A stretch of DNA of 64,000 bases from Amoebophrya sp. A120 (taxonomy: Eukaryota; Protista; Dinoflagellata), in NCBI GenBank assembly GCA_905178155.1, contig CAJINV010000008.1:4241420-4305419 (forward strand), in the 5' to 3' direction. The notes under the pieces are model-generated. The model was not told where the DNA came from and made no database searches. It worked only from the letters and a program-made list of their open reading frames with translations. A program made the translations under genes and the position numbers. This document shows, one piece after another, positions 101 through 64,000 of this stretch (its first letter is position 1; every line of letters begins with the position of its first letter).

Positions 101-3100
101 CTGCGCGCTGTCGCACGCTTGGCACTGGACAACGAAGGTTTGATCGCGTCCCACCCAGACCAGGCCGTCCAGGCGGTTGAGGCCGGCTTCAAGTCCCTGC
201 CCCATGAGGACCAGGTTGGTATCGTCCAATGGATCGACCGATCCCTGAACCCGCCCACGCACCCGTGGATGTACTGATTTTGTTTTAAACTTCTTTAGCT
301 GCATATGTCAGACAGTTTCTCGCAGGCCATAAGAAGCGAGCAAAGGGCTGATTTTGTTTTAAAACCCTGAACAAACCTCATGATCACGCATTCTCAACCC
401 TGCGTTCCTACCTCCATGTAAATGCACACTTCACATAGTCTTTTGTCGTGCGCTATTCATCAATCCATGTGTGAGAAGCTGCCATCCAGTCTGAATTTTG
501 GCACATAATCACAAACTCAATCAACACAGCTCGACGGAGTCTGGCGCAGTCCTGGGTGCCCACGACATCGGTATCACCTTGATGATAACAGCCACGGCCG
601 CTCTTTGTTGCCTTTGTTTCCAAAAACCGCGAAGATGAGAATTGATACTCAAATGGCGGGAGCAGTGGCGAAGACAGCTGTGCACGATTTGTCATGCACA
701 ATTTGTCATGGCGTAGTTGGATCATCTTGCGGCACAAGACGCACAATGTAGTTTCCCGACTAGTTCACTGTGCATCCATGATGACGATATTGCAAATGCA
801 TATGTAGGCGGTTCCGGTTTCAGCGGTAGCTTCGTCATGACGAAACATGTTTTCGTTTCGCGGTTTCCCAGTCATGGGTTGTAGGAGAGGTCCGTGAAGC
901 TTCTTTCATCCCCATACCTGTCGGCTCAACCTTCTACGAAATGTTGCAAATATACTGTCTACTGGGTCCTCTGTACATTTCTGATGCGCTTGCGTCTGCG
1001 CAACCAAGGTTACAGCGATATGCTTTCGTTAGTATGGCGAGTGCTCGTTTTTGCGCATGACACCGAGATGAAGCAACGCATCCCCACGGCGGCATCCACG
1101 CATCCGAAAGCCCAAAAATCTGGTGATGGGATCGAAAGTTTTCTTGCAGTATCATTGGGTCCACACGAGTTGCAAGGAAAATGAATACGTGAGTACTACT
1201 CTACAAAGAGCACAGACTAGTACCCTACGACGCGACCTATTTGCAATGCATACTCTTTTCATCGCGATGAACATGATGTTGGCCTTCACCGTTTTCTTCC
1301 TGCTCGAGCGAAACGCAGTGCCCGCCCAGTGGAAGCGGTCCGTCACCGTCGCCATGCTTGTCACGGGCGTCGCGTATTGAAATACAATTTAGATAGATGA
1401 GTGCTTCTTGATTCTTCGCCTCGCTTGTTTCACGCAGGCGGCGTTGAGCCTAGTATCCTCCTTGACAGAGTAACAGAACATTTTGAGGCGGAAAAAGAAA
1501 TGCTACGGGGACAAGTTAGTTGCCCTTTTGGCATAGCTGGAAGTAGCGTGGTTTGCAGCGAGTTTCAGTGTCTCCTAAAACTGTGAGGACTGATGATGCG
1601 TGACATGTGCAGCTCTAACTCAACTAAAACAAAACTACAGGTTCTGGAACTACTTCTACATGCGAGGGGCGTGATATGCAGGGAAGCGAGGTGTTTCGGT
1701 TCTGGAAATCGGTCCTTTACAAGTTCGTCTTGTTTGTAAACTGCCATGTACGACAAGATTCTAATGTCATGCGCAATATTGGAAGTTGAACTTGAAGTGG
1801 TTGTTGAGGGAGCGCTCCGGGGGCTCGATGTCTTTCTCTGTGGCTAATGCTTGAAAGAACAGTTTTTTGTATTCTGGGAGCGTCGCGCTTTTGGGCTTGT
1901 TCATGATACGCATGCGACGCGAGGATTTCGATTTTCCCAGTGAGGTATCTTCCATTGAGCCCAACTAGAATCGTGACCGACTCCTTCCCCTGCATACGCT
2001 GGTGAAGACGCAGCAGAGTATCCGCCACGACACAAAAAGATAAAGGATCCGAGTTTTTGCCATGATAAGTAATTTAGTCGTATAAATTATTTTTTCTACT
2101 AAAAAACATGTTGCTGTTCTGGTGAATTCTGGTGATGATGTTCTCTACCTATGTAATGATTCACCAACTAAACAAAAATTCGTGCTCCACGTGCGAACGT
2201 TTTGGCATTTCATACTCCGCCCAACCGTCTACCGGTACACCGATATCGCACACAGAAGGTTGTAGTGCTGTGACGACCACATCTGTGCTCTGCTGTTTTG
2301 CATTAATTCGATTCCGACCACTGAGGTCGTTCTTTTAATGTTGCGTTCGTGGCAGTAAGGACGCCGGAATTGTAGAGTAGAAATAGGGTTTGTCATGCGC
2401 CTTTTAGAGATGAAGAAGAAACAGGAGGTCAGGCACTATTTTTTTGCAGGGTGCAAGAGAAGAAATGAAGAACCAAAACAACGTATGTGTCTGACCACTT
2501 CTTTGAAATTTGTACTGATGCATATGTAAGAGGTTGCAGTAATACGTCTTTTTCTTTTCATACCTCACTGGCTGATCACCGTGCCGCTCCAGATCGTCGA
2601 GTTCTATCTGATCCTGCAGGTACAAGTGTTTTTCGTTTCGATTGATGCTTTCCCAATGCAGAATAATATCATGAATGATCGCTCCCTAGTCGAAATCCAC
2701 ATCTTTTTGACATGAGCAAGTTGCAAACCTAGATTGCGAAACCGCACTGGAATAATACACACGAAACATCCATTTCCTTTTTGAACTACTCGTTGCTCTG
2801 TGGCACCTACAGCTGCAAACAGTCGTCAAATCATGAAAAGCTGTTGACTGAAATGTAAAAGGAAGGAAGTGGAAGACAACATCCTTTAAAAAAAAGCAGT
2901 ACGTACTGAAAAGTATTTTGATTTCACGTCACTTTCAGGCTACGACCAACGTGTCTGTGATGCTGTTCTGGCGCCTCTTGATTGCTTCCATCGTCATGCT
3001 GGTCGGCGGGTTCTGCGGTGAGGTCGGCGCCTGCTCCGTGTTGGTCGGCTTCGTGGTCGGCATGTTGGGCTGGTTGTACATCCTGTTCGAGGTCTTCTGC

Positions 3101-3944
3101 GGGGAGGCGGGCGCGATCGTATCCTGTGCAAAAGTATCGTACTCGTACTAATTGCAAATATGCATGACAAATCTTCTTCTTAAGGTAAAACAGCATTACA
3201 AATTCGATTTCTCTTCTTGCCATAATTTGTAATGCAATTTATGCTAGTGCGATGCTTTTGCAATGCATAGATCGCCGGCAACGCCAACTCCAAGGCCTGC
3301 GCGTCCGCGTTCAACACCCTGTATCCTGAGTGAAAACGTCCCCACACCAGAGTTGTCATGCAGATTTGCCATGACAGGAACAGTTGTGATGCGCAACCCC
3401 ATGACAGGCATTTTCAATCGTGTTTGGGAACTTTCAGCAGATCGATTTGTGATGCGGCTTTCCTTGCTAACTGCACTACCTTACGGACTGAAACTTGTCA
3501 CGCGTGACTCCCAAAAGTTCTAGGCTTGTGCTGCAAAGTCCCCATCTTGACTCTGGTGTGGGGACGTTTTTAATCAGGACGCCCTGCGCTTGATCGTCTC
3601 CGTGGGCTGGGCCATCTACCCGATCGGCTACTACATGGTCTACTTGGGCCCGACCTTCTCCTACCACGCCGACTCCGTCGTCAACATCATCTACAACTTG
3701 GCTGGTAAGTAGTTAGATAGCGCTACAACAACGTTGCAAGGATAGAATCACGTTGTTGTGCCATGCTCTGCTCTACAATTTTTTGTCGCCCCGAGTTGTA
3801 AGGAGGTGTTTCTTGCGTTATGCAGTGATGTGGGTTCCTAATTCTATGCTTTATTCAGTTCTGGATCAAAAAAAAACCAACACAGATTTCGTCAACAAGG
3901 GTGCCTTCGGCCTGTGCATCTGGGCCGCCGCCTATGTAGTGTAA
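101..3944 (+). CDS. Proteorhodopsin paralog 1 (multi-exon; 5' end probably outside the window, last exon uncertain)
   Basis: Exons ~101-270, 530-570, 921-933, 1257-1373, 1641-1673, 2001-2017, 2219-2242, 2567-2619, 2939-3118, 3274-3320, 3586-3704, 3886-~3930 join to ...HDIVGSTFFIAMNMMLAFTVFFLLERNAVPAQWKRSVTVAMLVTGVAFWNYFYMRGAWVKTQQSPTVYRYTDWLITVPLQIVEFYLIL...GWAIYPIGYY...NIIYNLADFVNKGAFGLCIW. Contains the helix C RYxDW motif and the retinal-binding DxxxK motif. Confidence 0.93.
572..916. mobile_element. Old introner in rhodopsin 1
   Basis: TATC...CATA termini; removing 571-920 joins ATC G|TC GGC (DIVG). TIR is weak. Confidence 0.65.
935..1252. mobile_element. Old introner in rhodopsin 1
   Basis: TACG..TTGCAAATA / TATTTGCAATGCATA ends; removing 934-1256 joins TT|T TTC ATC. 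Confidence 0.7.
1675..1996. mobile_element. Introner in rhodopsin 1 (AT...CT intron)
   Basis: TIR TATGCAGGGAAG / CTTCCCCTGCATA; flanks CGTGA/CGCTG; removing 1674-2000 restores the TG|G Trp codon. Confidence 0.85.
2019..2214. mobile_element. Old introner in rhodopsin 1
   Basis: TATC...CATA; removing 2018-2218 gives A|GC CCA ACC (SPT). Confidence 0.7.
2244..2562. mobile_element. Old introner (family E-like) splitting the Asp97 codon
   Basis: TATC...CATA; flanks ACCGA/CCTCA; removing 2243-2566 gives ACC G|AC TGG (TDW). Confidence 0.8.
3120..3269. mobile_element. Introner, 150 bp
   Basis: TATCCTGTGCAAAAG...CTTTTGCAATGCATA; exact TSD GATCG. Confidence 0.85.
3322..3581. mobile_element. Introner family A
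   Basis: ~30-bp TIR TATCCTGAGTGAAAACGTCCCCACACCAGAG; TSD CCCTG; close copy at 51321-51599. Confidence 0.95.
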
Positions 3945-6900
3945 CCCGTGGTCTGGATCTGGAAGCAAAGCGGGCAAAATTTTCACATTGCGTGACAGCT
4001 GTATATAAATCTTGCCGAAAATGACATTGGTGTTGCTGGTCTCTCGCTCACGAGGTTGCGATTGGCAACATTTCTGCTTGGGCCCCTTCAGGGCTCGTCC
4101 GCTACCGTAACATCATGCAACTTCTGTCACGCACAGTGCAGGTTGAAATTGAAACTGCAAGTGATGCCGGGCATCACAGTGCAGGTTGAAATGAAACCGT
4201 AAACCCTAAACCCCTGTCACGCTCATGCATTGATTGCCGGGCAAGGGCAAACCGCTTTTATGATTTGCTGTTGTACATCAATTGTGTCTGTCAGTATCCG
4301 CTTCCTAGAAAAAACCAGACCCGCTCGTCCCACTGCATACGCGGAAGTCGGACGTGAAGAAGGGCCTCCTGGCTTAAGTGCGCTTGCAGCTCAGCGTCAG
4401 AGTTTTAGTACGCACACCGCCATGAACGAATTCACTAAAATGTAGATGTAGAAACAGAGCAACGTGCAATGTCGCTTTTATTTTTACCACGCACGGCGTA
4501 GAAGTATCTACCATATGAAACAAACCATAACACGTGGCAAAAGCGAAGGACTGCGAGCAACGGCACGCGATGCTGCTCATGACAATATCATGCGGCGGAA
4601 AGGAAATTAGGAGTTGGAAAATAAGTAACCACTTGATAGCACATTACTTTCTCAAGTTTCGTTGATGCGAACAGTACATCAATCAGGATAAGACCCTTTT
4701 TACTAGTTGTAGTTGTTTCTCAACTACCATCCAGGCGGAAAACTACGTTCTCTGTACTTTTGGAACGCCAGAACGTAGAAGACCACGCTCTGATCTACTT
4801 ATGAACCAGGGCACATGCAAACGTGGTCACTAGTGAAAGGGACCAGAACGAGTCAGTGATCAATAGTATCCAGCGGAAAAGTCTCCGTCCCGCCACAGAA
4901 GTAGGTCCGTAATCCGCCGTCCGTGCGGCTAGCAGCACTTGTTTGCAAGACGGTAGAAAAGTTCTTCAGCAGTAGGCCAACCAGCTGCGGAAATTTGAAA
5001 GAAGGGCCGCACTTACTAGGGCTTTTGGGGATGGCGACTTTCGCGCTGGATACACATTGGCAACAGCAAGTCAGCACCTATCAGAATCATTTTACCAGTT
5101 TAGAATCAGGAATAGAACCAATAAGTTTTGTGAAGGTTTAGCAATTAGGTTTCAAATTTTTACACTTGCGCACCTGCAAGAAAAACAGAACTGCGCTTGC
5201 GCAAGTCGAAGTTGGGCATCAGTTATTGGAGCCCGCAGGTGCAGGAAATTTCGAAGTACAGAAACACGCCCACACCTGTCGCTTTATCGGCCGACAATTT
5301 TATTACACTGCGCCTCTAGGACTGCATGCAGACGCACTGGAAGCATAAGTTGATGAGACGAACCTGCATCACGCTACACAGTCGGGACGGGAGAAGAGGC
5401 ATGATAGGCAGCGTGTGCGGTATTTTTACCTCTCGAAATTTTCTCGTTAGACAGTATGGGTTGATGATTATCATTAAGCACAACTACAGGATAATTGTAA
5501 GGGATCCTCATTACGTTCAAATCTGGAGGACCATATCCTCATCTCATGTAGAATCACAGTATCATCTATATCGGACCGCATAGCAGAAAAAGAAGGACCC
5601 TGACCCGTTGCTGCGGGAGGTACGCAAAGCACTCATACACCCCCGCCTCTTTCAGACTGGTCTTGGCACTGTAGGGATGAGAATGAATAACAAGTAAACC
5701 TGAAATGTGTGTTGAACCGATCATGCTGAAATTTTTGTACAGAAGAAGTGCTGGTGACTCGCAGCCATCTGTTAAAGCCTGCGCAAAGTTGCAGACAAAT
5801 TTGCACCACAGCAGTCGGGGCAATCATGTTGCCAGCCTCTCATCTTGCATGACGACAATGTAGGCGGGGGTATGTTTGTCAATCATACAGGATACGCCAT
5901 ATGTAGAAAACATTCAGGGATTCTCGAACACTACTATCGAATGCAAATATACCGGGTTTCGCGACAAGATAGCACCTCGTCAGCATGATCTTGTATTGCG
6001 AGAGAAAAGTTCACATTTGCGATATGCCGATGCAAATTTCATCATACCTTTAGTGGTGCTGAAAACACATGATTTTCTTGTCGGGAAATGAGGCATATTT
6101 TCTCCATGCATAATCAGCAACACACTGCAAAAGTTGTAGCCCATTGCGTAGGCTGACGACGGTTGCAGCCGAGAGCTATGCTACAGGTCGCAGATTTGAC
6201 ACATGCGTGAACATGATAAGTTTTCCGAAACAGCAAACGACGGTAAAACACATCAAAAAACACATTTTTTAATACTTATAAAGAGAGCGCAACAAAGCGG
6301 CGTCTCCTGCAAGAAGTTCCATGATTCTTGCATCGCCCGCTCGAGCACGAGGCTCCTTTGTGGTGCTATCGAATAGTGGCGCTGCACGTTCAACCTCGGT
6401 GCTGTGTTGCTCTTTTTGTGTCAAATACTTGCTTGGCCTCATTGCTTTGTGATTGTCGTATACTGCTTACTGTTTGACAGCGTTTGCAATATGTTTTGCA
6501 TGTAAATGAGTGACCGAAGTCAGACGTAGAAGTGGAATTTTCTTTCGCTCTGTCCCTGCCGTCAGCGTGATATCTCCAGTGGCAAAAAATTTGAGCGTAG
6601 CGGGCCTAGTTGTACCTCAGGGCACTACATCTTCGTCGGTCGCAAGCGCAAGAAATTCGGTTCCAGCAGAGCGAATGAATGAGCGACCTTTTTTTTTCAC
6701 GAATGCGTTTGTACGTACAATAGAAATTCACTTTCTCGGTGATGCCTCCTCTGTCAACGTCGGTGCGCGTTTGTTTTTCACCACTAAGCGTCCCCTTATA
6801 TCCTGGTTGTACACCACGAGAGACTGATACCACCTAATTTCAAACAATGTTTTTTGTACTCCCGGCTGGGAATTTTTAAATTGATTTCGTTGTATCATCC

Positions 6901-7454
6901 TGGTGACCAGTGAGGGACAAAATTTTTGTTTATCCGCTTCTCATTCACACCCCCGCCTCGTAAACTCCACCCAGGGCCCAAGGAGAAAACCCGAGAGAGA
7001 CAAGTAGACCCACCTCAGCATCTGTGGAGAGTGCTGTTTAGAAAAAGTAAAGCAACTAGCTTTTGAACAACTCTTGTTGACAATTCCAGTACCGTAGGAA
7101 GAAGAGAGAAAGGCTTGAAGGTCGTAGGTGTAGTATCCACGGCAAAAAACATGTCTGGTTCTGGAAAAGTGCCGCTGTTTGATGTATGCATGAGCACAGA
7201 ATAAACAATGAAATGGTCGGGACCTTTTTTCAGACGCATTGCTGCAGTGAATGCCCAGCAGCGGATTGCTTTGCTTGCAAACGCAATCCACCGTTTGCAT
7301 GACATGATATACCTCTTAAAACAGTTTGGGCGACCACGTGCATTCTCCCCACGGTTTTATCAGTGCACTTTGTGAAGAATTGGCGCTTTCCAGGGTTGTA
7401 CTCCAGACATGTTTGCATTGCATCTGTGGTCTTAGAAACGTTTTTCCAGAGAAG

Positions 7455-10084
7455 ATGGTGATTACGTCCGAGCAGATCGGCGCCGCCGAGGGCGCCTTCG
7501 AGAAGATGCCGCTGTCCGAGAAGATCGATGCCATCAAGGCGCTCGCCCGCGCGGAGCGGTCCGCTGCCGCCAACCCCTACGGCTTCCCGCTGTCCAGCAC
7601 TGGTACTACTTTAAAATAGAAGTGTATGTTTTTTCGACTGCTCAAAGGTAGGGATTATGTTGGTTGTTGCAGGTGGAGATGTTGACAAGTGGTATTGGAA
7701 AGCACCAGATTTCATTTCGAAAGCTGTACACTATTCTGCTGAACATCGAAAGGGAAAAAGAATCGCGGAGCATGATGATCATATGATTGTTTTGCAGAGA
7801 CTTTTTAGAGACAGAAACAGTCATCTGGTACTTCCGCATTGACTTTTCACGACGCTTCTTGAAAGTGCAGATGGAAACGTACCTACACTCAGGTATCCCG
7901 ATCGTCCAGGGCATGAACGACGACAGCGTGTTGGGCTCCCACGACATCGTCGGTGTCACCTTCGTACGCGCTGTGAAAGCTGCCCTCTCTTGGTTCTTTC
8001 TCATCGGTTCTTTAAAGTAACTGTCCCTGTCTGTTGTTTGTAACGAGAAGTTGCGAAATAGTAAGTGCGGACCGGCGCAGTAAGTAAGTAATCATGCTTG
8101 TCGTTGTGGACTGGTACAATAATAAGTTCACGTGCTGTATCACAGAGGGGCTTTTGCAACAAGTGCATATCGGTGGATTGCGTGCGCGTCCATGTTGGCG
8201 GGTTCCGTGTTCTTCTTCTCCGAGCGGGCCACCGTCCCAGAAAAGTGGAAGACCTCCGTCACCGTCGCGGGTCTCGTTACCGGCATTGCCTTCTGGTATG
8301 AAAGTTTAGTTTCTGTAAAAACATGACTCATGAACATGATGCAGATGAACAACAAACCTAGCGAACTTCGATGAGGTCGTGACTTGATTTTTTCAAGAAC
8401 ACCCTGGCACAATCAAGAAGATATGTGGACAAAATAATCAGGAACTACTGCTTCATGCGTGAGTCATGGGTCGAGACCCAGACCTCCCCAACGGTGTACC
8501 GGTACACGGACTGGCTGATCACTGTGCCACTGCAGATCATTGAGTTCTACCTGATCCTGAAGGCCGTCCTGCCCAACATCAGCTCCGCACTGTTCTACCG
8601 CCTCATGGCCGAGTCCGTCCTCATGTTGCTGTGCGGCTGGGCCGGCGAGACTGGAATCGTCTCCGTCCTTTGCGGCTTCATCCCGGGTAATAGCTGGTTT
8701 TAGTTTTTCTGACAAGCAGTAGTTGAGGAACTGAAGAAAATTTCTCTCCCTTGTCGTGCGATGCATCGTCGTATTTATTAGTCTCAGAGTAGAATTGCAG
8801 TTGCATTGCAGTCATGTTTAAAGTAGTAGCCGCATTAGTAGCTTTAGATGGGGAGTACGCAATGAAAGCTACACTTGGATGGGTGCGATGAAAAAAATTG
8901 CAACGACGGCACAAAATCCTCGACATTCACAGGTATGCTGTGCTGGTTCGCCCTCATCTACGAGATGTTCACCGGTGAAGCTGGTCAGTTGGCTGCTGTA
9001 TGAGATGAAACGTCGGCGCGCTCGCACATGGCTACACCACCGAGTGAAATTGTTAGCAGGATAGGATTTTAGTTTGCATTGCAATCATCGACTCGGCGGA
9101 TGTTGGGGGCATGTGAAAAAACCGGGCACATTGGCATTTCTACTCCGCTTGTCAGAAACACGCTGCTCCTTGCGCCGACCGCTTATGCTTGAAGCGGAAG
9201 ATGTAATCTGGTAACTTCTGGCTTTAAATAAACGCATGGTGGTGTCCTGCTATCCATGTGCTCGCGACCTCATTTTCCGCTGCATAGCCTGGCTGCGGGA
9301 ACAAGGCGTGCCTCTCTGCCTTCAACACCATGCGCCTGATCATCACCGTTGGCTGGTATCATCATGTTTCTTTTCCTATGGTGCCAATAGACACGTGTAA
9401 TAACTGGAGAAGACCACATGCTATTGTCTTGTCGACGACACAGAGTTCGTCCTGCACAAACAAATTTGGTATCAAGAAGTACTTGTGAGAAACTTTATAA
9501 TTGAATCAAAACAGGGCCATCTACCCGTTGGGCTACTACCTGACCTTGTTGGGCCCCTTATGAAAGATGACTGGACCCCCCCTCTCTCCAAGATTGATTC
9601 CGAGGGAATCATTGAGCACCGCGTTTATTGAGCTCTGGTTGGGCATGCCGCGGTGCAAAAATCTGCAGAACGCTGCCTTTGAACTAAAGCATTCGAACTA
9701 CCGTTTGATCTTTCTGCATGTGAGCTAAAAGAGATTTCGGGGGAGAGGGCTGCTGTCCACTGGCATATTCCACCGCCACCTACCACGAGCAGTCCGTCAT
9801 CAACATCATCTACAACATCGCGGACTTGGTCAACAAGCTCGCCTTCGGTACTCTAAAGATTCAGTTGCTCTCTGTGCAACAGTGACATTTTCATGCCTTA
9901 CACTTTGACTTTTTGCTTGCGAGTAATAGTATTACGTAGCAGCTCGTTTTCAATCATCAGAAACGTGCGTGGTTGAATTGTTATTACTTTCATACCAATG
10001 TGTTGAAAACAAAATTACAATTCCACGAACCAACTTCCAAAAACAGGCTTGTGCATCTGGGGTGCCGCCATCTCTGACAAGTAA
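7455..10084 (+). CDS. Proteorhodopsin paralog 2 (complete, 9 exons, ~65-aa N-terminal extension)
   Basis: Exons 7455-7602, 7893-7963, 8174-8295, 8442-8686, 8933-8997, 9291-9355, 9515-9557, 9772-9847, 10047-10084 give MVITSEQ...DIVGVTFWIACASMLAGSVFFFSERATVPEKWKTSVTVAGLVTGIAFWNYCFMRESWVETQTSPTVYRYTDWLITVPLQIIEF...NIIYNIADLVNKLAFGLCIWGAAISDK*. Confidence 0.95.
7965..8169. mobile_element. Old introner in rhodopsin 2
   Basis: TACG...GCATA; removing 7964-8173 gives TTC|TGG (conserved FW). Confidence 0.75.
8999..9286. mobile_element. Old introner in rhodopsin 2
   Basis: TATG...CATA; flanks TGCTG/GCCTG; removing 8998-9290 restores the frame. Confidence 0.7.
9559..9767. mobile_element. Old introner in rhodopsin 2
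   Basis: TATG...CATA; removing 9558-9771 gives CCC|ACC (GPT, as in paralog 1). Confidence 0.75.
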
Positions 10085-12158: not shown

Positions 12159-13786
12159 CATCGTGAATTACAACTAGCGTGCTGATGTGATGCGTTTGCT
12201 TCTAGTGAGATACGAAAATAAAAAATCTTCAGAGATGATTCGCGCTCTTCTTTTCTTTTGGTGTTTCATTTTACGTTCGAAGTATAAGCACCGAAAGTCA
12301 GAACTAAAAAGCGAGAGGCTGCAGTGGACAAAATACAACTTGATAGCTTGGCCATGTGTAAAAATATCTTCGCTGGTTCGGTGAGAGTATCAGAACTACC
12401 ACAAAGCTCGAGCATCTGCCTTCCAAGAAGGCTAGCTGTAGATGCTGAACGTCGAGTATCCAAGCTCTCGAAAAACCGTGACAAGCACGGAAAATATGAA
12501 GGAGCTCGCTGTGTATGATGGATGAAACTCAAATGTGTTGAGACGCTTTTTTTCGTTACTGGTGAACCTGATACAGTAGTCAGTAACCATTTCTGATGTG
12601 GAATTCGAATCTGCACGGAGTGGCCACTAGATTGTGGCTCCGTCCTCGAGGTTATAATTTATCATTTGTTCATCTTTTTTTTCAAACTCGAGCCCAAACC
12701 TCCGCACGCCCCCCCCCCCCTAGTGCAGGATAAATGATGGTGGTGATTTTGATCACCGTGATCAGCAATTATCTCAGTTCAGGTTATCGTGTAGAGAAGC
12801 AACATGTAGTGAAAGTTCAAGTTACCGATTTTTTTCGGTTGCATCGATAGATTGCACATTGGAGTCTTGTTGCGGATCTGGATGGGCACATGAATTGTAA
12901 TTGTAATTCGCAGATCCTCAGCGACAAAGCTAGCATTCGAAATCAATGCCAGCATTGTTTCTAAAATTTATTAGTAAACCGTGGAAGTTTTTTGAGTTAG
13001 AGATTGAATTTGCCACATCTTGTTGCTTCTTTGTAGTGTGCCATTCAAATAATTTTGGATAGCAGAATGGGTTGTGTGAAAAGTTCCCAATTTTCTACCA
13101 CACGCGCCGTGAAGTGTAGTTGCATGATGACGTCCTTCAGCAACTACACGATAATGGATTGATTGATTGATGATTTTCAGATGTGGGTCAATCTTTCCTT
13201 TTCAGGTCTTTCCCTTCCGAGTGGCATGTTTCTTAGATTATGCCCGCCATCGCCATTTGCCTTTCGCCAGAACTCATGGTTTGGCTTAGCACGACCCCGG
13301 TGGGGTTGTTTCACGCCGAGTATTGACTCGTCGTTATGTTCTTCCTGCGCCGACCTCTGCCGAAGCAAGTGGCTGAGTGATTGGGTTGTGCCACCGCGTA
13401 TTTGACGATCGAACGGGAGATTGCCGCGACAATGAAGCGACAAGACCGCTTCGTATACGTGTCCCTTCCCGTTTATGGAAGTGTCATGATCGAAATCGTC
13501 AAAGTTGAAATAAGTAGTTTGTCATGCATACAATGCAACGCAAGAATTGCCTCTATATTGCAGAGGACGCAAGGCAGGGAGACTGTAGTGGTGGTAAGGG
13601 TCGAGAATCGGGCTGCTGATTAGCATCACAGAGGGGAACCCCTTTGCTCTAGACCGCATGACAAACTGGCTTCCGGTACGGACAAAATTCGCCACGCATC
13701 GACTAGAAAATGTGCGCCCCATTGGTATCGATTTTATGCATTGCGACGCATTTCAACTTTGTCGATTTCGATCCTGACGCTTCCAT

Positions 13787-53900: not shown

Positions 53901-56900
53901 CAACGCTACAAAGACGCAACACCTGTTGCCCGCGCGCGGGCACTGTGTGAAGTTGCGGCCGCCCTAGGTGGCCGCCTACGTTAAGGCGTGGCGCCGCGCC
54001 CCCCCCGGGGGACGCAGAGCGGCGCATGCACTTTGAACAGCCGCCCTGGTCTGCCCTGGAGTCAAAAAAGAAAAACTTGCAGAGGTAGGCGACCTTAACT
54101 TTTAGGCCCTAGCTTTGTTTATTCTTACTCTAAGACACAGGCACTGCGCGCAGGCGGGCGAGCTTCACTGTGCGGGCGGTTCTGGTAGAGGGTCCGGGAG
54201 AGGGTCCCGGAGAGGGTCCGAGAGAGGGTCCCGGAGAGGGTCCAGGAGAGGTTCGGAGAGGGTCGCGGAGAGGGTCCAAGAGGTCCCGAGAGGGTCCGCC
54301 GAGAGGTAGAAAAGAGGTTCCCGGAGAGGGTCGACATAGAGGGTCGCTTAGAGGGTCGCCCTATACTGTGGAACCTCTCTGACCCTCTCGACCCTCTCCC
54401 CCTACCCTCTACTTGACCTCTACTCAACCTCTACGCACCCTCTTCGGGCGTATAGCGCCGCTATACGGTCCCCTATACTGCGCACCCTCTCCCGACCCTC
54501 TCCGTACCCTCTCACTTTACCTCTCCCCGACCCTCTTGTTTTGGTCGACCCTCTACTTTACCTCTCCGACCCTCTGTCTAACCTCTACGAAACCTCTCCC
54601 CAACCTCTATCGGACCCTCTCCGGCCCCAAAGTTTGCCTTATATAAATATATTAATGGGTCGTGTGCTTTTCTGTAGGATACGAGCTGGCTTACAAGCAG
54701 TCCACCGGTGCCTGTGGGGGTCCATGCAGGCTACATGGAGGTGTTGGTGAGGGTTGCTGGGGAATCGTGGGGGCCAATGCGCCCTGGTTCGGGTTCCATT
54801 GTTGTGCCGGGGGGGGCTGCTGTGGTTGAAAAGTGTTCTGCTGCATCAGCGGGCACTGCGTGAAGGCCTGTTGTCCCGGCGCCCCGCACTGCTGCTGCGT
54901 CTGTTGCATTGGCAGTGGTGGTTGCGGGGCCTGCTGCATCTGTGTGTTCTGGAGCCCGAACTGACTAGCGCTTGGCATGCCGCACTGCTGATGTAGCTGC
55001 ACTGTCTGTCCCCACTGCTGTTGTCCAGGTCCAGTTGCTGTCCCGAGCGGAAGCTGACCCTGCGGCGCGAAGCCCATCTGATGCGGGGGTCCTCCCATCG
55101 GGTTTGTCGTGTGCTGCTGCTGTTGTTGATTCTGGGCAAAGGGTGGCAATGCGGGCGGGGGACTATACTGTGGGCCAGTTGTTGGCAGCTGCGCCTGCTG
55201 CTGCTGCGGCTGCAACTGCTGACCTGGTGGTCCCTTCCCTTGTCCTGGCGGCCCGCTTGGCCACTGCTGGAAGTGCGGTTTTCCACCGCCTTTTACGTAC
55301 ATTTCCGATTTCGCCGTAGCTGCTATCGGACCACAATTACGTCTGGATGTGGTCCATAGTCCCGTCCGGGTGTGGGTGATCGAGATCGATCACCTCGCAA
55401 CGCTTTGATGTAAGGACCGGGGACCAACGAGACCATTCTTTGCTTCTTGTTCTTCAAAAAATACTTACACTCTTTCTCTCTTCAAAAAAAGCCCAAAACC
55501 ATGGGCCCCACACGATGTGGGGACGGCAATTTTCAGCCATCATATAATTAAAACATCATTAGATCCAAACAGTGATAAAAAATGCATCAAGCAAAATGAA
55601 AACTTTGGGTCGTGTGCGTCAAGCAAAATGGGTCGTGTGCTTTTCTGTAGGATACGAGCTGGCTTACAAGCAGTCGCATTCGACCGTTTTACTCGATGCT
55701 CAGGAGATGACAGATCCGAAAGTGGCCATCAACAATCTATGGAAACCCACTGAAGCAAATGGTATTATCTTCATGCACTAGAAAATTTATCTTTCCTTCC
55801 TTACCCTGGCGATTCAGCACGACTGGACGACCTTGGTTGTATCTACTAGTGCAGATGATTTTTTACGTTCGCTGTACTTGGTGTCTTTATTTAAGTATTT
55901 ATTAAGCTTATTTTAATTTATTAAAATTAGAAGGAGTTTTTTCGTTTCCTAATTCGGTGATGGCTGCTCGGTTTTCCGGGCGAAAGCGCTGCAGGAGTTC
56001 TGTCGAATGAAAATCGACGGAAGTTCGATTCTATTAAAAGAATTCGTCCTACTGCTTGCGAAACGTTTTCATTGGCACGCTGGGATCAACAAAAAACAAA
56101 AACCACAGGAATTGAGGCGACGACGAACAAGCTGCTCGGCGACGACAACGTGTTACGCATTGCAAATATGTCTGGGTCTGGAAGAATGCGTACTTGTGAT
56201 GCGCATTTCACAACACACAAAAATCTCTCATACCTAGGCAGGAAAAGTTGCCCAGAGTGTGCGATCTGTCATGCGGATTAGGCATTGCGGACGCTCCTTC
56301 TCAAAACCTGTGATGCAGCTAGGGCTCTCATTCCGGACCTTCTGTGTCATGCGAAAACAGCATGACAAAAATCTGCGTTCTCCTTCCTGACCCAGACAGA
56401 ATTGCATTTGATACTTGCTAAAGTACGACGATCTAGCGAAATTCAAAACGGCCAGTGACGGCTATCCTGCAAAAAAAAACGTCCCAGCCTAAAGTCAAGT
56501 AGATGGGAATTTGACTGCACAAACGCCCATGAGATTTTCTGTGTTGTGCATGACAGCTTTGGCGGCGTAGTGTAGTTGTAAAAATCGAGTTTAGTTGCAA
56601 ATGTAATCGCGTCACATCAAATTGATCGCCTCATGATCCTGGTACAGGTTCTTGTTCTTCTAGCTTTGCATACATAAATTTCCACGCACCAGTGGACAAT
56701 CAATGCTACCACGAAACAAATGGATGCGCATGAAAATAAAGAACATTTTAGGCTTAGGCACGCAGATTCGCATGAGAAGCGTGAGGTGGGGACGTGGTTG
56801 CACAGGAGGACGCCGAAATCACTTACCAGGAGTGGGAGGCGGGAGGCGGGATTTTCGCGCCCAAAGGGGGTGCGTATCGTAAGGAAAAATCCCCCCTCCC

Positions 56901-59900
56901 CATATTGAAAAGGTATGTTTCCGAAAATTTGCGTTGCTGATTTGAGGTCACAAATCGCATCTGCCTTGCAAGGAAGAAGACAAGGGCAGCAGCTTCCCCC
57001 CTATTATGGAAGCGGTTTCTCATGCTGTGAAGCCTAAAGAGGACCCGTTTGCCATGCTGAACAACTAGACCCATACGCCCCTACCTCGCCTGGGGATCTG
57101 GCCGCAATGCCTTCCTGCAATACAGAGTTGATTTGTGTACACAAGTCCAGCATCAGAAACTCCGTTTTGATATGGGGAGGGGGGGTTTTTCCTTTCGATA
57201 GTGCGGAAAAGAACGGCCCCCCAGAACTCGACGAGGATGTGTTCGAGATGTTAGCTGGAAAGGACGGTATCAAAATGAAAAATCCCCCCTCCCTATATCA
57301 AAACGGAAATTTGTGATGCTGATTTGTGGCCACAAATCAGCTTTGTGATGCTAGAAGGCAAGAGATGCGGACAGTAGTGCTGTCGAGCGTGGGAAAGCCT
57401 TGCAGCTCCAGGATGACAGGAGGCAACTGGAAGTGGGAAACAGCATGACAGATTACCTGCAATATAGGCCGCAGCTTCGTCTCTTGGCCTTCTAGCAATA
57501 CAAGTTGATTTGTGTACTCAAATACAGCATCACAAATTCGCGCATCTTCCGTTTCCGATATGGGGTGGGGGCTTTTTTCACTTTGATAGACGGCGTGCTG
57601 AAACGAGAGGACTTCGAATCTGGCGGAGCCGCATACAACCTGGGAGATCCGAAAAACCACCACCAGATTACCAGGGAAGTGTACGACCAAATCCGTTGGG
57701 AAGCAGAGGCCATGGACCTATCCTGTGTAAAACCGTACTTGTTATGTTATCCATCTTTTCCGACAGAACTTGTCATGCATACTTGCTGCATGCCCAGAAC
57801 GTCACTCATGCGGCTTCGCTGTAGGGGTGGCAACATGTTCTCGCCGTGATTAGAAAAAATCCGTCGCACACTAAAAATCAGGATAAGCAAGAACAGGGTC
57901 GTCCTCTGTGGTGCAACGGGCCTAGCTACGCGCGAATGCATGCACATGACCACCAAGCTCGTGAGTCTCAAAGATTATCGACCTTTCTTGCAGAGCGAGA
58001 GTGCCCACCTTGCCTGTGGGATTGTGTGGGTTGTGCTATCGGTTTTTTTGCTAAGGATAGGACCACGATGGCGATTCAGACGTGTTGTCTGTGAACGATC
58101 TGTTTTATCAAGTGCAAACATGTTTATTTTTGGGCCTGGAAAAAATTATTTCTCTACGCAATTTATTTCGGATGATCGGGTGCACGCAGGAGGCCTACAA
58201 GCTTTTACATAGAGCATTGTACTAGCAAGGTCTGCAATGAGGACCTCTCGATGCCTAAGTAGCCCGCGTGAGAAAAAGTGGCCTTCTTCGAATGATAAGA
58301 AGCGCACATCTGTTTCTACTCTGGACCAGCGTCACACGCTTTGCATCTCTCCAAACGAACCACACATATTTGCAACGGTGCATATTTTTCCGACACAAGA
58401 CCAATCTGACGGGCAGGCCGGCGCGTATCAACTGCAAATTTGCTGGGTCTGGGAGGTTGCGAGGCTTGTCATGCTAGTCTCGCATGACTCTGAACTCTGT
58501 ATTGCGTGGCCGCGAGGAGCTCCTCTTGCCTGTCATGCAAAAATGGAGTTTCTCATGCGGAATACGCAAGCCAGAACCACGGAAAAAATTGTCATGCTTG
58601 GAAGCGCATTGCAGTGTGCTATAGTAATGCCTTCCTTGCATCACAAGTTTCCAGACCCAGACATATTTGCAATCCATAGCGCTCGCACCCAGACGATGTC
58701 CATCAACGAGTGGCACGGGCGTATTGCGAGGAAAAATTCCCCCTCTCCATACTAAAAAGAGATACTCCTGAAAATTTGCGATGCTGATTTGTAGCCAAAA
58801 ATAGTCTCTGTATTGCACGAAGGCAACGCCAGAGACTCCGCTGCGCTGTGCACGCAGTTTGTAATGCTGTACCGCCTACAGAAGATATGCCTGTCTTGCT
58901 AGGCGCCTACACCAAAACGCCCCTACTCAGGCTGTGCACCTGTCTGCAGTCCTCTACTGCAAGACAGATTTGTGTACACAAATCCCGCGTCACAGATTTC
59001 CATTAATTTTGATATGGGGAGGGGAGATCTTTCATTTTGATAGGCCGCCCGTCCGACTTCTACGCGCTAGCGGGCAGCACAGAGCTATCCTGTGTAGAAA
59101 CGTCTCCAACTACCCAGAGCCAAGGTCGTGCTGGTAAATTTTCTACACAAATCAGCAAGGTTATTACGCGATGCAATCTGTTGTCACGCAACGGGCGTGG
59201 GAACCCTAGAATGAGAAGAACATTTCCATTTTCACCAAACGATGATGAAAAAAGATTTGCTACAAACACGAAGAAACATGCTGCTCCTACCATAACAAAC
59301 TCCAATGTAAGATTAGAAAACGCCCCTCACGCGGCAGCGGATGACACACATTTTAGGAATACCAAATTGCATGACCCATTTTGGGTGGGGACGTTTTTAC
59401 ACAGAATAGGAGCCGGCTGACCAACTCGAGCGGGACGACTTCAAGAAGGCGAACATCGACGGTATACCAGGCGTATCCACTGCAAATATTTCTGGGTCTG
59501 AATATTTTGCGTTGCTGCGATTGGCTTGGCGGCGTGGCGACTCGTACGGCATGACAGCATGAGAAGTTTATTACCGCCCGTGGCAGCCGCGCATCATTGA
59601 TGTAGATTCATTATCTATCATTTTCATTCTTCTTCGCGCATCACAGATCTTGTCCTACCTCGCATCTTGTGTCGCAAATCCAGACCCAAAAATATTTGCA
59701 ATTCATAAGGAGTGACCCGGGACGAGATCTTCATAAAGAGCCTGTACTATTGACGATTTGTTTTGAAGAATGATGAATTTTTGCTTTAATAAACTTCTTG
59801 TCGCGACACCCACATCGATCACGCAACACAGTGGTGTTTGTGTTGCCAGACATGCAAGAAATGGGAGTTTCTTCCATGTTTTCCCTCGGAAAACGCGCAT

Positions 59901-62900
59901 TGCAGCTGTACTGAGTTCTTGATACAACTTTCATCTCGATTTTCTTCCTTCGCTAGAGCATTTTTGTCTTCGATCTGTGCAAATAATAAATCAATTCACA
60001 GCATGGAGGGTGGGTTCGACACGAACCGCGCGATCGCGGATTCGGCCAATGGTCAGGAGACGCTCTCGTGGAACGATTTCAAGGATGCTGGACTTGTCGA
60101 TAGCGGCAACAAAGTTACCCTGAAATCGTGGACGGACCATGGGGGCACGCCCGAACAGTTTCACGCGCTTGCCGGAACAGAACAATCGGAAAATGTGTTG
60201 ACGGAAGGCGGGTTCCACAAGCTGAGCACCGACGGCGGGGGTGCGACGGGGAGTCCGAACGTGCTAGACTCCAAGGAGCTTGAGAGAATCTTCAACACCA
60301 ACGAGGGTGACGGCTGGGCCGGGGATGCAGCAAAAGAATCCGGGGATCACGAGCAGCTCGACTTCCATGACTTGCAGAAATACGTGGAGAAGCATGACGA
60401 TGATAATCATCCGTACAATGCGAATCACCCGCACACGAAGGTCACTTGGAGGGAAGCAAAACGCGCAGGCATGCCTTTGAACCTCTGGAACCAACTGCGC
60501 GTATCAAATGCAAAAATATCTGGGTCTGGAATGTTGCCGGGTTTGTCATCATGCATATTTTGCATGACCCAGGATATCTGTAATGCGCGACCTAGCATCA
60601 CAGATCTTTAGAGGGCTTCCTGATGTCTACTCCGCATGACAAAAGCCCTCTCCGCGTAGCACAAACGAGACTCCTCTTGGTGGTCATGCAATACGGAATC
60701 GACCAGAACATGCTGCCACTCTAACGAGTCCTCACCTCGGGTCCGACCCGCGTTAGAGCTTGACCCAATCCCCCCGAGGTCATGCCCAGAGGCATCGGTC
60801 GTAAAGGGGGTGACTGTGGTCGAGGGGTAAAAAAGGTCATGCAATACAGATTTTTTTAGAGTCCAAAGTTAGTTAGCATCACAAGTTCCAGCCTTCCAGA
60901 CCCAGACACTTTTGCATTTGATAGCACGGTCACAACGACGAAATCACCGCGGGCGACTTCACCAGATTAGCGGACAACCCGCAGCTATCGCAAAAAAAAC
61001 TGTTTCACTGTGAACTTGTGACGCAGAAAATGGAACACAGAACTATTTGCTACACCTGCAACACATTGGATTTTCAAGCGTGATTTCCCTTGGGAAGCGC
61101 GCATGACAGACTTTCAGTGTCATGTGTAACAAGCTTGTGATGCAGATCTAGCAAAATCATCACAGTGAAACAGTTTTTTCGTGGGATAGCAGCTGGACGA
61201 ACACAAGTTTCCGGGCGTCGACAGCGATCACACATCGTTGTCCGAATGGGAGCGCGACCGTCTCGACAACGCCGGTTGGGATCAAAAACCGGAACCCAAC
61301 GATCCTGCGAACCAGCTACCAAACCACGACTCGCCAGTAACAACGCGAAAAGCGGTCCGCCTTACGAGCAAATCAGTGAAAAAACGTTTGCAGTAGCAAA
61401 AAAGTTCTTCGTGACGAGTTGTGGACGTAATTACTTATGCCCGCATCGATGAACATTTTTGCAGCACACTTCAGCAATACACAAAAAATCCATTACAGCT
61501 TGGCAAGCATTTGCATTCTACATCGGGGCCTCCCTGCATAAAAATTATAATCGCCATCATACATTGGATGTTGATTCCTACAACGATGAGTACAGAATCC
61601 AGATCAAATTTCGTGCAGAACGAGAACAAAACTTTTCCAGTTGCGACAAGGTATATCGTTTAGCGCAAACATTTTTTCCCGACCCCGAGGGCGGAACGCC
61701 TTTCACCGTGATAGCCAGAGGCTGATCTTCTATCACACAGAAAAAAAGCTTGCGCATCGCGTTTGTTGTACCAATAGCAATACTACATAGAAATGAAAAA
61801 GAAGCATCCAGAAAAGCCCACCGCGCAGCGGGTGGTAAGTAGCACCGCTCTAGTATGCTGAGCTCCGAAGTCCTTGCATTCGTTTCTGCATGATGCATCA
61901 AATGCGGTGTACTAGCGTCTTTCTATCTCATAGGTTCCGCACCAAGCTGTCCCGAATGACAATGGTGGTGGTAGTGGTGGTGGTGGTGGTGGTCTGATAA
62001 CACCAACAAACCTTGCGATCGCGGGTGTATCAACCGGAGCGCTTGGGTTTGTTGGCTACAGAGCGTTCGCCGGAGGAGGACCTATCCTGAGTAAAAACGG
62101 GACCCACGCACGATACTTAGTGAACAAGATGAGAATTACTTATTTGGTCAAAACTTTTGCGAGTCACGCATTAATACGCGGAGTGTACGAGAACCCTGAA
62201 TGATGCCTAGCTAGTCCAGACGCATCACAAATCCAGTGCAACACTCTGGCTAGCACATGGCAGATTTTTGTTCCAAGAAACAATTCTAGCGAAATCCTCG
62301 CCGCATGAAAAACATCCTCCGGATGCACATTTGCATGGCGAGTCTGGCGTGGGCACGTTTTGACTCAGGATATGATGCGAACGTATCAAATGCAAAAATG
62401 TCTGGGTCTGGAAGAATGCGCGATTTGTCATGCATATTTCTCATGACCCATGATGCCTGTAATGCAGGACCTGGCATCGCAGACTTTTGGAGGGCTTCCT
62501 GATGCACCTTCTGCATGAGAAATGCCCTGTCCGTGTAGCACAAATTGTACCCCTCTTGCTGGTCATGCGAATACAAATTTTTTTAGAGTCCAAAAACAGC
62601 ATGACAACTTGCAATCTTCCAGACCCAGACACTTTTGCAGTTGATAGAGCGATCCCGGGCGCGATACGTGGAGTCGAGCGACTCGGGTGAAGATAGCTCC
62701 CAAGCTATTACAATGAAAAATGCTCCTCCCCATATCAAAACGGAAATCTGTGATGCAGATTTGTGGTCACAAATCAGCTTTGTGATGCTAGAAGGCAAAG
62801 GATGCGGACTGTAGTGCGTTCTAGCGTGGGAAAGCCTTGCAGATCCAGGATGACAGGAGGCAACTGGAAGTGGGAAACAGCATGACAGATTGCCTGCAAT

Positions 62901-64000
62901 TTAGGCCGCAGCTTCGTCTCTTGGCCTTCTAGCAATACAGTTGATTTGTGTACTCAATACAGAATCACAAATTCCCGCATCTTCCGTTTCCGATATGGGG
63001 TGGAGACTTTTTTTACTTTGATACAAGCGCCTGTGCAGCCGCAGCATGAACCTGTCGTTTCACCTCTCTACCCACCGTCCCCTCCGGTCGCCGCTCCAAA
63101 GACGGAAACCCAAGTCGAGGTACACGTCACGAAGGGGAAGAAGAAGCATCGAAGCAAGTCAAAAAGGGGCAAGAAGAGCCGATCAAGGAACGACGATAAT
63201 GACGGCTACGGCAGCGAGTTGGAATCTTTTTTGCAAACCAAACACCAGGAAGATCCGAGTCCCACAACTGGAACTGCGGGAGTTTTTCCTCCCGGTCCCG
63301 CCGAAGTGGAGACGTTGACGCCGCGTAGTACCCATGCAGAGGGCGGAAAGGAGCAGGCCTCTCTTACGACTTCCTCTACAACGCGAGGGTCCGAAGTAGA
63401 ACTGGCGCTGGACGACGGCACCTCCGAGGTTGGGCGGTGGCGGAAGCAGGTGCTGCCGCCCACGACTTCTTCTACGAGCACTGCTAGTGCTACGAAAACG
63501 ATGTTGACGAAGCAGAACGAGGCTGGCTCTCCTAATTTGCATCCTGACGACTCGGACGACGAGATTTTTGTGCGGGAACAAGAAAACCAGCAGGAACATC
63601 AGCAGCAAAGCGAGAGGTGGGTGGTGGACAACGAGGACTCTTCGATGAATCCCAAAACCACGCCGGAGGTCTTCGCAGAGCAGCGATCCGCAAATGGAAA
63701 TGAACGGCCGCACTCTCGAAGTACTATTGCGACACCTGCGACCATCAGCGTTTTGGCGAGGGGACGAGAGAAGCCGACACGAGGACTGGTTGAGGGATTA
63801 AACCAGTACGACGCGCCGTTTGAGACAACTGCTCGCGCCAGTGACGATGAAGCACCCAGAACCGACACCGTCGAGACCACCAGCGGTAGAAATTCTCGTC
63901 AGGCTAGTGGTAAGCCGCGCCTCTCGTTCGAGCAACGCGAAGACCGCCGCAAGGCCGCGTTGCGCGGCACTCTGCGAGCCCCCGCGCAGCAGCGGAATGC
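47937..64000 (+). CDS. Large EF-hand-like repeat type I membrane protein (more than 20 introns; start uncertain, open at window end)
   Basis: Spliced frame contains FDHDDNGILTQQDF, WDQNNRDADTITMEE, MDHDGDSD and repeated F-x-x-LAG-x-DG-x-L units, then a Gly linker, TM-like LAIAGVSTGALGFVGY (~62010-62060) and a low-complexity tail. Several junctions were not resolved. Confidence 0.75.
49354..49583. mobile_element. Introner (separate family)
   Basis: TIR core AAAAAGTG-TACAGTTACACATT; flanks CGGAG/CTGAG. Confidence 0.85.
49647..49941. mobile_element. Introner family A
   Basis: TATCCTGAGTAAAAACGTC / GACGTTTTTACTCAGGATA; flanks GAGGG/GTGGG. Confidence 0.9.
49987..50164. mobile_element. Introner family E
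   Basis: TATCACACAGAAAAAAGCAGG / CCTGCTTTTTTCTGTACGATA; TSD GCACC. Confidence 0.9.
50524..50848. mobile_element. Introner family B
   Basis: TSD CCATG; inverted relative at 58722. Confidence 0.93.
50960..51281. mobile_element. Introner family B
   Basis: TSD CCTCA; close relative at 56875. Confidence 0.93.
51321..51599. mobile_element. Introner family A
   Basis: TSD AACGG; highly similar to 3322-3581. Confidence 0.95.
51707..52131. mobile_element. Diverged B-like introner
   Basis: TSD CACGC; right end CAGTTTTCATTTTGATA. Confidence 0.75.
54187..54622. repeat. Inverted minisatellite: (AGAGGGTCC)n followed by (GACCCTCT)n
   Basis: Short ~10-11-bp units switch strand at ~54365. Confidence 0.85.
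54691..55302 (-). pseudogene. Gln/Pro-rich ORF fragment truncated at a 47-bp repeat
   Basis: 203-aa Q/P/G-rich ORF whose stop codon lies inside repeat copy 2. Confidence 0.5.
56154..56413. mobile_element. Introner family C
   Basis: TACGCATTGCAAATATGTCTGGGTC...GACCCAGACAGAATTGCATTTGATA; flanks CGTGT/CTTGC. Confidence 0.85.
56463..56809. mobile_element. Introner family A (diverged)
   Basis: TATCCTGCAAAAAAAAACGTCCC...GGGACGTGGTTGCACAGGAGG; flanks ACGGC/ACGCC. Confidence 0.8.
56875..57200. mobile_element. Introner family B
   Basis: TSD GTGCG. Confidence 0.93.
57268..57588. mobile_element. Introner family B
   Basis: TSD GACGG. Confidence 0.93.
57719..58059. mobile_element. Introner family A-like
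   Basis: TATCCTG...AAGGATA; TSD GGACC. Confidence 0.85.
58426..58678. mobile_element. Introner family C
   Basis: Family C ends; flanks GCGCG/GCGCT. Confidence 0.85.
58722..59042. mobile_element. Introner family B
   Basis: Family B ends; flanks GGGCG/GGCCG. Confidence 0.9.
59086..59408. mobile_element. Introner family A
   Basis: TATCCTGTGTAGAAACGTC / GACGTTTTTACACAGAATA; flanks AGAGC/GGAGC. Confidence 0.85.
59474..59707. mobile_element. Introner family C
   Basis: Family C ends; flanks AGGCG/AGGAG. Confidence 0.85.
60502..60923. mobile_element. Introner family C (long)
   Basis: TATCAAATGCAAAAATATCTGGGTCTGGAA / TTCCAGACCCAGACACTTTTGCATTTGATA; flanks GCGCG/GCACG. Confidence 0.92.
60986..61188. 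mobile_element. Introner family D
   Basis: TSD GCAGC; reverse orientation relative to 27096. Confidence 0.92.
61731..61932. mobile_element. Introner family E (diverged)
   Basis: TATCACACAGAAAAAAAGC...CTCATA; flanks TCTTC/GGTTC. Confidence 0.7.
62083..62372. mobile_element. Introner family A
   Basis: TATCCTGAGTAAAAACG / CGTTTTGACTCAGGATA; right TSD decayed (GGACC/TGATG). Confidence 0.88.
62384..62646. mobile_element. Introner family C
   Basis: Family C ends; flanks GAACG/GAGCG. Confidence 0.92.
62706..63023. mobile_element. Introner family B
   Basis: TSD CAAGC; near-identical to 57268-57588. Confidence 0.95.
63537..64000 (+). repeat. Paralogous block matching 36567-~37045
   Basis: Shared TTGCATCCTGACGA..GACGACGAGATTTTTGTGCGGGAACAAG through GCACTCTGCGAGCCCCCGC, in the same reading frame. 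Confidence 0.9.

Follow-up and report, generated by a model that had tools for sequence, protein, structure and literature searches.

The 64,000-nt window analysed here (Amoebophrya sp. A120, contig CAJINV010000008.1, positions 4,241,420 to 4,305,419) carries on its plus strand two tandem microbial rhodopsin genes (101-10084) and a long host gene of unknown function, all interrupted by short elements with terminal inverted repeats (TIRs) that are removed from RNA as introns, and the RNA junctions observed for these introns all fit one cut register relative to the element ends. Rhodopsin 1 (PF01036; 101..4378; protein P0048) begins upstream and has eight element introns and four GT-AG introns in the stretch, rhodopsin 2 (PF01036; 7455..10084; P0001) has three element introns and five GT-AG introns in its coding region, and the third gene (47994..64000) runs off the window, its open frame of 1554 aa spanning 25 element introns and two of GT-AG type and ending in 857 residues identical to P0122. 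The ad hoc gene finder that we used is too rough to trust beyond candidate elements.

Fifty-two TIR-bounded elements lie between 572 and 63023, with lengths of 150-627 bp (median 295), and together with the flanking 5 nt they occupy 15.5 kb of the window. A preliminary description made from the letters alone had counted about 40, in at least five families of 150-630 bp; the elements exist but the count was too low, and the families were borne out by clustering of 45 elements, which placed 17 in eight multi-copy families and left 28 unclustered. Three uncertain candidates near 30954, 32809 and 40109 were kept out of the count, and at 32809-33510 we observed a repeated 700-bp element that matches locus L055 at 81% and has a TAT left end and a decayed right end. 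Scanning for TIRs with target-site duplications (TSDs) gave 58 candidate pairs, compared with 3, 1 and 5 in three order-3 Markov simulations. The termini are TAT..ATA in 39 elements, TAC..ATA in 5 and TAA..ATA in 2, and the right end is altered in 6. The direct repeat is 5 nt long and is identical at 5/5 bases in 19 elements, 4/5 in 13 (32 of the 52 thus at 4/5 or better), 3/5 in 6 and at most 2/5 in 14, with one element at 0/5; given these 14, the TIRs of that description stand, but its 5-bp TSDs are clear only among younger copies. Short, bounded by TIRs and a TSD, and grouped in multi-copy families with shared ends, the elements are non-autonomous TIR DNA transposons of the MITE (miniature inverted-repeat transposable element) type. 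Four sit in untranslated regions (UTRs), three of them in a 3′ UTR, a placement absent from the preliminary description.

RNA-backed junctions comprise 26 resolved at base level and seven established by length, the latter being arithmetic on the total length of contig pieces, and each drops the element plus 5 nt; the remaining 19 element introns are predicted solely from the reading frame. All spliced evidence consists of assembled contigs, of which those from runs X5 and X6 (two other studies) are on record as RNA and those from X1 and X4 are taken as RNA by guess. In the rhodopsin region, contigs of X1, X5 and X6 skip both the elements and the GT-AG introns, and further downstream runs X1 and X4 skip every element from 56875 to 63023 within one contig and keep the exons of 12 nt (61718-61729) and 6 nt (62377-62382) between adjacent elements, whereas the DNA-like run X14 is continuous over 200-3144 and 3553-10150 and carries none of the 15 joints listed. 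Unspliced contigs also occur in X1, at a depth of 19-53 against about 1900. Placement of a GT/GC-AG intron is possible at 0 of the 26 base-resolved junctions, so the elements leave the transcripts without recourse to GT-AG sites, in agreement with the earlier statement that most boundaries are not GT-AG. Template switching classically arises at a hairpin combined with a direct repeat, a setting that would favour joints made by reverse-transcriptase jumps across hairpins between direct repeats; empty DNA alleles would have the same effect. The dependence on assembled contigs, the guessed status of X1 and X4, and two raw-read runs from 2026 that lack the strain (X18 and X19, with 10 and 0 reads for it) leave some room for such an artefact, but three junctions share no base across the joint and two of those recur in a second study (X5 and X6), the same contigs also lack the GT-AG introns, X14 is unbroken, and intron lengths fall into all three frame classes (19/17/16, n = 52), so that retention would wreck conserved proteins. 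We therefore regard an artefact as very unlikely.

With the offset defined as the number of nucleotides before TAT at which the intron begins, register 1, in which the intron is 1 nt plus the element plus 4 nt and thus ends 4 nt past ATA, fits 26/26 RNA junctions, compared with 16 for offset 0, 19 for offset 2, 11 for offset 3, 7 for offset 4 and 6 for offset 5. Because many duplications have diverged, the junctions cannot slide freely and the register can be resolved; three do not slide at all (1674-2000, 7964-8173 and 62082-62376, with TSD identities of 2, 0 and 2 of 5). Register 1 also applies to elements whose duplication now matches at only 0-2 of 5 bases, which indicates that position relative to the element ends, and not the direct repeat, guides the cut. 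Under any other register, conserved rhodopsin residues that the orthologues P0004 and P0043 retain would be altered, with a stop replacing a Trp among the changes. Splicing by the rule yields P0001 in full and 297 residues of P0048 with the RYTDW motif restored, confirming the earlier claim that removal of the element plus 5 nt restores the frame and the rhodopsin motifs. It also opens six consecutive predicted introns at 27095-30404 and betters the gene models, a database protein being joined in one frame to about 700 further upstream residues.

The coding sequence of rhodopsin 1 opens in the window with two old elements seen in loose-end letters of RNA contigs, 572..916 (intron 571-920, GT..TG, TSD 1/5, placed also by the register) and 935..1252 (TAC start; intron 934-1256, CT..CT, TSD 2/5). 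They are followed by elements at 1675..1996 (intron 1674-2000, AT..CT, non-sliding; X1, X5), 2019..2214 (no detectable end-pairing; intron 2018-2218, GT..CC; X1, X5) and 2244..2562 (intron 2243-2566, AT..TC; X1), the last of which restores the RYTDW motif when removed. RNA by length supports a young 150-bp element of family 3 at 3120..3269 (intron 3119-3273) and a family 2 element with right end ACG at 3322..3581 (intron 3321-3585), both also represented by X5 pieces, and the element before the last coding exon at 3933..4339 (intron 3932-4343). The three 3′ UTR elements are at 4867..5052 (intron 4866-5056; X1, X5, X6), 5621..5887 (TAC start; intron 5620-5891; X1, X6) and 5935..6112 (intron 5934-6116; X1, X6). 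Upstream of the rhodopsin 2 start codon lies an element with right end ATC at 7134..7424 (intron 7133-7428; X1), and within the gene are an old element with a TSD of 0/5 at 7965..8169 (intron 7964-8173, GT..GG, non-sliding; X1, X6) and elements at 8999..9286 (intron 8998-9290) and 9559..9767 (intron 9558-9771, TT..CC), both seen in X1, X5 and X6.

Between the rhodopsins and the third gene, the reading frame predicts introns for elements at 13474..13787 (13473-13791), 14532..14799 (right end AGA; 14531-14803), 18996..19291 (family 5; 18995-19295), 27096..27315 (family 6; 27095-27319), 27860..28202 (right end ATG; 27859-28206), 28321..28630 (28320-28634), 28710..28998 (28709-29002), 29166..29462 (29165-29466), 30106..30400 (30105-30404), 32214..32575 (right end ACA, TSD 5/5; 32213-32579) and 33657..33978 (family 5; 33656-33982), and for the longest element, of 627 bp, at 37282..37908 (37281-37912). 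In the third gene, RNA by length supports 49354..49583 (TAC start; intron 49353-49587, with X4 pieces), 49647..49941 (intron 49646-49945) and 49987..50164 (family 8; intron 49986-50168). Frame-based predictions follow for two family 0 elements in opposite orientations at 50524..50848 (50523-50852) and 50960..51281 (50959-51285), a family 2 element at 51321..51599 (51320-51603), and an element with a TAA start and a TSD of 5/5 at 51707..52131 (51706-52135); we discarded the idea of a hybrid intron at 51919-52135 because the left end actually lies at 51707. The right end of the element at 52175..52381 is present three times (52381, 54681 and 55654), and only an intron of 52174-55658 keeps the frame open. 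We observed at 52356-55674 that a 46-nt stretch comprising this right TIR and the start of the next exon is present three times, its copies flanking two inserted blocks of about 2.3 and 1 kb that contain a Gln/Pro-rich minus-strand open reading frame (ORF) at 54691-55389 with no Pfam match; the frame survives solely with the last of these copies, whose use would fuse the upstream gene to P0122, and this joint is not among the RNA joints listed.

Downstream of this repeat, both the frame and P0122 support predicted introns for a family 1 element with a TAC start at 56154..56413 (56153-56417) and an element with right end AGG at 56463..56809 (56462-56813), after which X1 and X4 contigs define introns for elements at 56875..57200 (family 0; 56874-57204), 57268..57588 (family 5; 57267-57592), 57719..58059 (57718-58063), 58106..58384 (no detectable end-pairing; 58105-58388, TT..TT), 58426..58678 (family 4; 58425-58682, which excludes register 0), 58722..59042 (family 0; 58721-59046), 59086..59408 (59085-59412), 59474..59707 (59473-59711, which excludes registers of at least 2), 60502..60923 (60501-60927), 60986..61188 (family 6; 60985-61192), 61338..61713 (TAA start; 61337-61717, followed by the 12-nt exon), 61731..61932 (61730-61936), 62083..62372 (TSD 2/5; 62082-62376, CT..AT, non-sliding, followed by the 6-nt exon) and 62384..62646 (family 1; 62383-62650). 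The last element, of family 5 at 62706..63023 (intron 62705-63027), is supported by RNA length.

A TIR pattern search recovered 111 loci in a second assembly (493 kb, overlaps included), which shares families with the window and holds copies that are up to 96.6% identical. When the window and these loci were scanned free of any terminal-base requirement, with overlaps between loci left in, TAT..ATA bounded 272 of the 332 matches with a perfect 5-nt repeat; the distinct copies number 302, and of the 282 whose termini are exact, 210 have a TSD of 5/5, with little preference in the target bases. Across 229 oriented copies, positions 1-3 are TAT at 0.98-1.00 and positions 11-12 are A at 0.86 and 0.91, and the arms in the window are similar. 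Sixteen families have at least three copies each, and sense/antisense counts in the four largest are 28/24, 23/14, 11/13 and 11/9, both orientations being occupied; second-assembly orientations come from a codon-model strand classifier that mis-called parts of the rhodopsins in a hold-out, so some may be wrong. The TIRs, duplications, repeated families and dual orientation uphold the earlier view that these introns are transposon-derived, and the mobilising enzyme would be a DDE transposase acting in trans. The autonomous partner with the same TIRs that had been suggested as a check was found neither in the 493 kb of loci nor in the window: the loci hold ten long TIR pairs, most resembling ends of neighbouring elements, the best of them (L078, 1126 bp) has no long ORF, and filtering of the 170 unique ORFs of at least 200 aa left 131, of which the 123 searched against Pfam yielded no transposase or integrase, only a Copia-type reverse transcriptase in L004. 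Two TIR patterns searched in viral contigs and an Rfam search of the window gave no match. A Tc1/mariner-type TA duplication was ruled out, the repeat outside TAT..ATA being 5 bp. In locus L057, the ends of a TAA..TTA element at 3277-3495 can be read as a canonical GTAAG donor on each strand.

The register suggests how such elements could insert harmlessly in any sequence and in either orientation. For an element (TAT..ATA) flanked by a 5-bp duplication N1-N5, the intron comprises N5, the element and N1′-N4′, so that the joined exons regain exactly one copy of the target, made of four bases from upstream and one from downstream regardless of their identity, while the symmetric ends would allow families to occur in both orientations, as they do. 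The paired TIRs would juxtapose the two intron ends. We scored this pairing from the first and last 35 nt of each intron against shuffles (threshold z < −2) and found an end duplex in 29/33 RNA-backed element introns versus 0/13 canonical introns, with strong pairing in most copies with a decayed TSD too. Removal had been proposed earlier to be defined by the TIR hairpin, which stands insofar as the cut keeps a constant distance from the TIR ends and these ends mostly pair, but the spliced introns 2018-2218 and 58105-58388 have no end-pairing above shuffles at 35 or 90 nt (one of the two has z −2.0 at 60 nt), in 13/33 RNA-backed copies the three outermost pairs are predicted to be mostly open, and terminal bases are kept. 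Specifically, +2T, +3A and −7A are each present in 33/33 RNA-backed copies, among them 12/12 with a TSD of at most 2/5, and +4 is T in 28/33; +1 and the last two bases are free, giving 21 different end pairs among the 33.

An alternative in which geometry alone suffices, any closed stem being cut beyond its base, by 1 nt on one side and 4 nt on the other, with terminal sequence acting only via pairing, would fit the strong pairing of most copies, those with decayed TSDs included, and would also accommodate six young second-assembly copies that alter +2, +3 or −7, although these are known there from DNA alone. It is harder to reconcile with the unchanged register of copies whose terminal pairs are mostly open or whose end duplex is missing, with the TAC and TAA left ends that keep ATA at the right without compensating change, and with an asymmetry of terminal changes between mirror positions. 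In the 52 window elements there are 15 changes at +4, −5 and −6 versus 0 at the mirror positions −7, +2 and +3, a count biased in that left ends were partly found by looking for TA; among 312 oriented second-assembly copies the counts are 17 versus 6 at +2/+3/−7 (one-sided p 0.017), and among 90 older ones 7 versus 0. The bases +2U, +3A and −7A thus appear to be read as sequence, so the hairpin alone is probably not the whole code, and we consider geometry alone improbable.

Our favoured reading, to which we assign a probability of roughly 0.55, is that element introns are removed by the ordinary U2-type spliceosome with relaxed ends, guided by the hairpin and the terminal bases. The 5′ end would be read as N|UA, with +1 free and with +2U/+3A as in the canonical GUA donors: 13/13 canonical introns in the window begin GTA, so that +2T and +3A are common to these and to all 33 element introns, which in this respect resemble host donors beyond +1 even though GT/GC-AG ends are absent. 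The 3′ cut would be measured from the terminal AUA, not from an AG, and the A at −7 might serve as the branch point. We also observed that canonical introns (e.g. 14267-14520) have a GTA start, A-rich runs before CAG and no pyrimidine tract, and that one carries CTAAC immediately ahead of AG, which hints at branch points very close to the 3′ end. In PMC7789003, most spliceosome proteins plus U2, U4 and U6 are reported for strains A120 and A25, the U1 small nuclear RNA (snRNA) being found in neither. Its genome-wide Table S4 lists nine commonest A120 motifs that all begin NT and nine A25 motifs that all begin TT, and A25 inverted repeats (IRs) start TTA, so both strains fit N-T-A. A further point in favour is that the U2 spliceosome handles TIR-derived non-canonical introns in Fritillaria (10.1101/2025.08.15.670264). 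The introns of strains AT5 and Kv are canonical, and U1 is present in Kv (PMC12005148), which makes them a natural comparison for splicing in A120 and A25.

A second, non-spliceosomal machine could act on the same elements in the same register, a structure-guided endonuclease plus ligase, of the sort suggested for euglenid nonconventional introns, that reads the stem and short terminal motifs and frees a circle or a linear piece. Both terminal dinucleotides are free, no hybrid introns (one TIR end and one canonical end) were seen here, U1 snRNA went undetected in PMC7789003, and the layout of a short inverted motif at set distances from the cuts resembles the tested Euglena code N3-CDG / CH′G-N5-6, all of which speaks for such a machine; yet the +2U/+3A left by the 5′ cut match those of the 13 canonical donors exactly, A25, with its different TIRs, also conforms to N-T-A, a rule that a separate machine would not have to obey, and two spliced copies have no end-pairing. 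We consider it a possible but doubtful alternative.

Several points weigh against the relaxed U2-type spliceosome too. To our knowledge, known spliceosomes check +1 and the last two intron bases, which are free here, and −7 is A in only 6/13 canonical introns. Besides the bias of the window count, the asymmetry that speaks for terminal sequence is modest: a strict-orientation subset gives 11 versus 4 (p 0.06), the first case-by-case tally gave only 11 v 6 and significance was reached only in a later, more sensitive search, a family-alignment tally shows no asymmetry, and there are the six altered young copies. The arms show no excess of G-U over A-C (86 v 81; 202 v 214), so selection on RNA pairing in young copies is unsupported. 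Finally, hybrid introns were not seen here, and their rarity in Euglena has been taken to mean two machines (PMC12501133). Going beyond the relaxed U2-type reading, we tentatively suggest that the A120 spliceosome may have dropped the GT/AG check, the transposon end serving by itself as the complete splice code, with N|UA at the 5′ end, a branch A within the right-hand TIR and a fixed distance measured to the 3′ cut. If so, any TA..TA element with a 5-bp duplication would become a scarless intron at any site and in either orientation, and the TT-starting introns of A25 would obey the same N-U-A rule.

The window also contains features of other kinds. At 41346-46253 there is a 1635-codon open frame with a reverse transcriptase domain (PF00078) and no element introns inside, probably belonging to a LINE-like element that continues the frame of the coding sequence upstream. 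An inverted-repeat element of 1.6 kb with long subterminal 53-nt tandem repeats lies inside an intron at 22134-23737; it has no 5-bp TSD and no Pfam match and belongs to another class of element. Two genes share a duplicated coding segment (36567-37045 and 63537-64000, 94-95% identity), and a short frame at 12150-12210, interrupted by an in-frame TAG, contains what we take to resemble a glycosyltransferase motif.

Among known systems, IS3EU/GingerRoot elements share TA..TA termini and TIRs with the window elements but usually have a 6-bp TSD (PMC10045372), compared with 5 bp here: 284 matches have a repeat of length 5 versus 20 of length 6, and none of the listed top starts at length 6 is TAT. 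Dataset S2 of PMC12130899 assigns family 38 to Ginger with ‘5-bp TSD, TA/TA Termini’, and its automated splice calls vary by family (both from 38 of 58 A120 rows). The non-canonical introns of Fritillaria borealis (10.1101/2025.08.15.670264, PMC11282704) likewise have a TIR/TSD transposon origin, lack GT-AG ends and occur genome-wide, but they mostly use AG-AC/AG-AT sites, with U1 conserved and dependence on U2 demonstrated, whereas neither +1 nor the 3′ dinucleotide is fixed here and U1 snRNA is undetected. Euglenid nonconventional introns (PMC12501133) share a proposed MITE-like origin, terminal pairing, fixed motif-to-cut spacers, free terminal dinucleotides and coexistence with GT-AG introns, and a stem joining the ends at fixed spacers is found here as well (29/33 pair, in one register); they differ in using the motif CDG/CH′G with spacers of 3 and 5-6 and a purine after the cut, and full-length circles are reported for them, whereas the motif here is UAU/AUA with spacers of 1 and 4, and CDG at +4..+6 with CH′G near the 3′ end is lacking, +4 being mostly T.

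The closest system is that of A120 itself. Exon 8443-8682 is 100% identical to P0001, which is labelled Amoebophrya sp. A120, so the elements are the A120 introner elements of Farhat et al. 2021 (PMC7789003), and the earlier statement that introners occur at non-canonical introns in Amoebophrya applies to this very system. That paper describes IRs starting TAT-N7-AAA with 3-5 nt direct repeats and found no A120 transposase; the organism label, TAT followed by about seven variable bases and a run of A, direct repeats at the boundaries, repeated families and RNA-supported removal without GT-AG all recur here, and ‘rhodopsin’ is absent from its main text. It reports no clear splice signature, with splice sites variable relative to the hairpin, whereas all junctions here can be fitted by one register. 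Neither this register nor the N-U-A / AUA-N4 code is stated in the literature that we found, of which Fig. 3 and S19-S23 of PMC7789003 and 20 A120 rows of PMC12130899 may show more. Both are partly implicit in print, in the repeat described as ‘four nucleotides upstream’ and in Table S4 (PMC7789003), and in the fam160 row of PMC12130899, which places the splice at TE start −1 and TE end +4 without comment. The element class is therefore already published and our finding is a rediscovery in kind, with a sharper, directly testable rule: a single register replaces ‘variable, unknown borders’ with named bases (+2U, +3A, −7A) and a site at which a branch point might be sought, and it addresses the mechanism by which more than 60% of Amoebophrya introns are removed without GT-AG.

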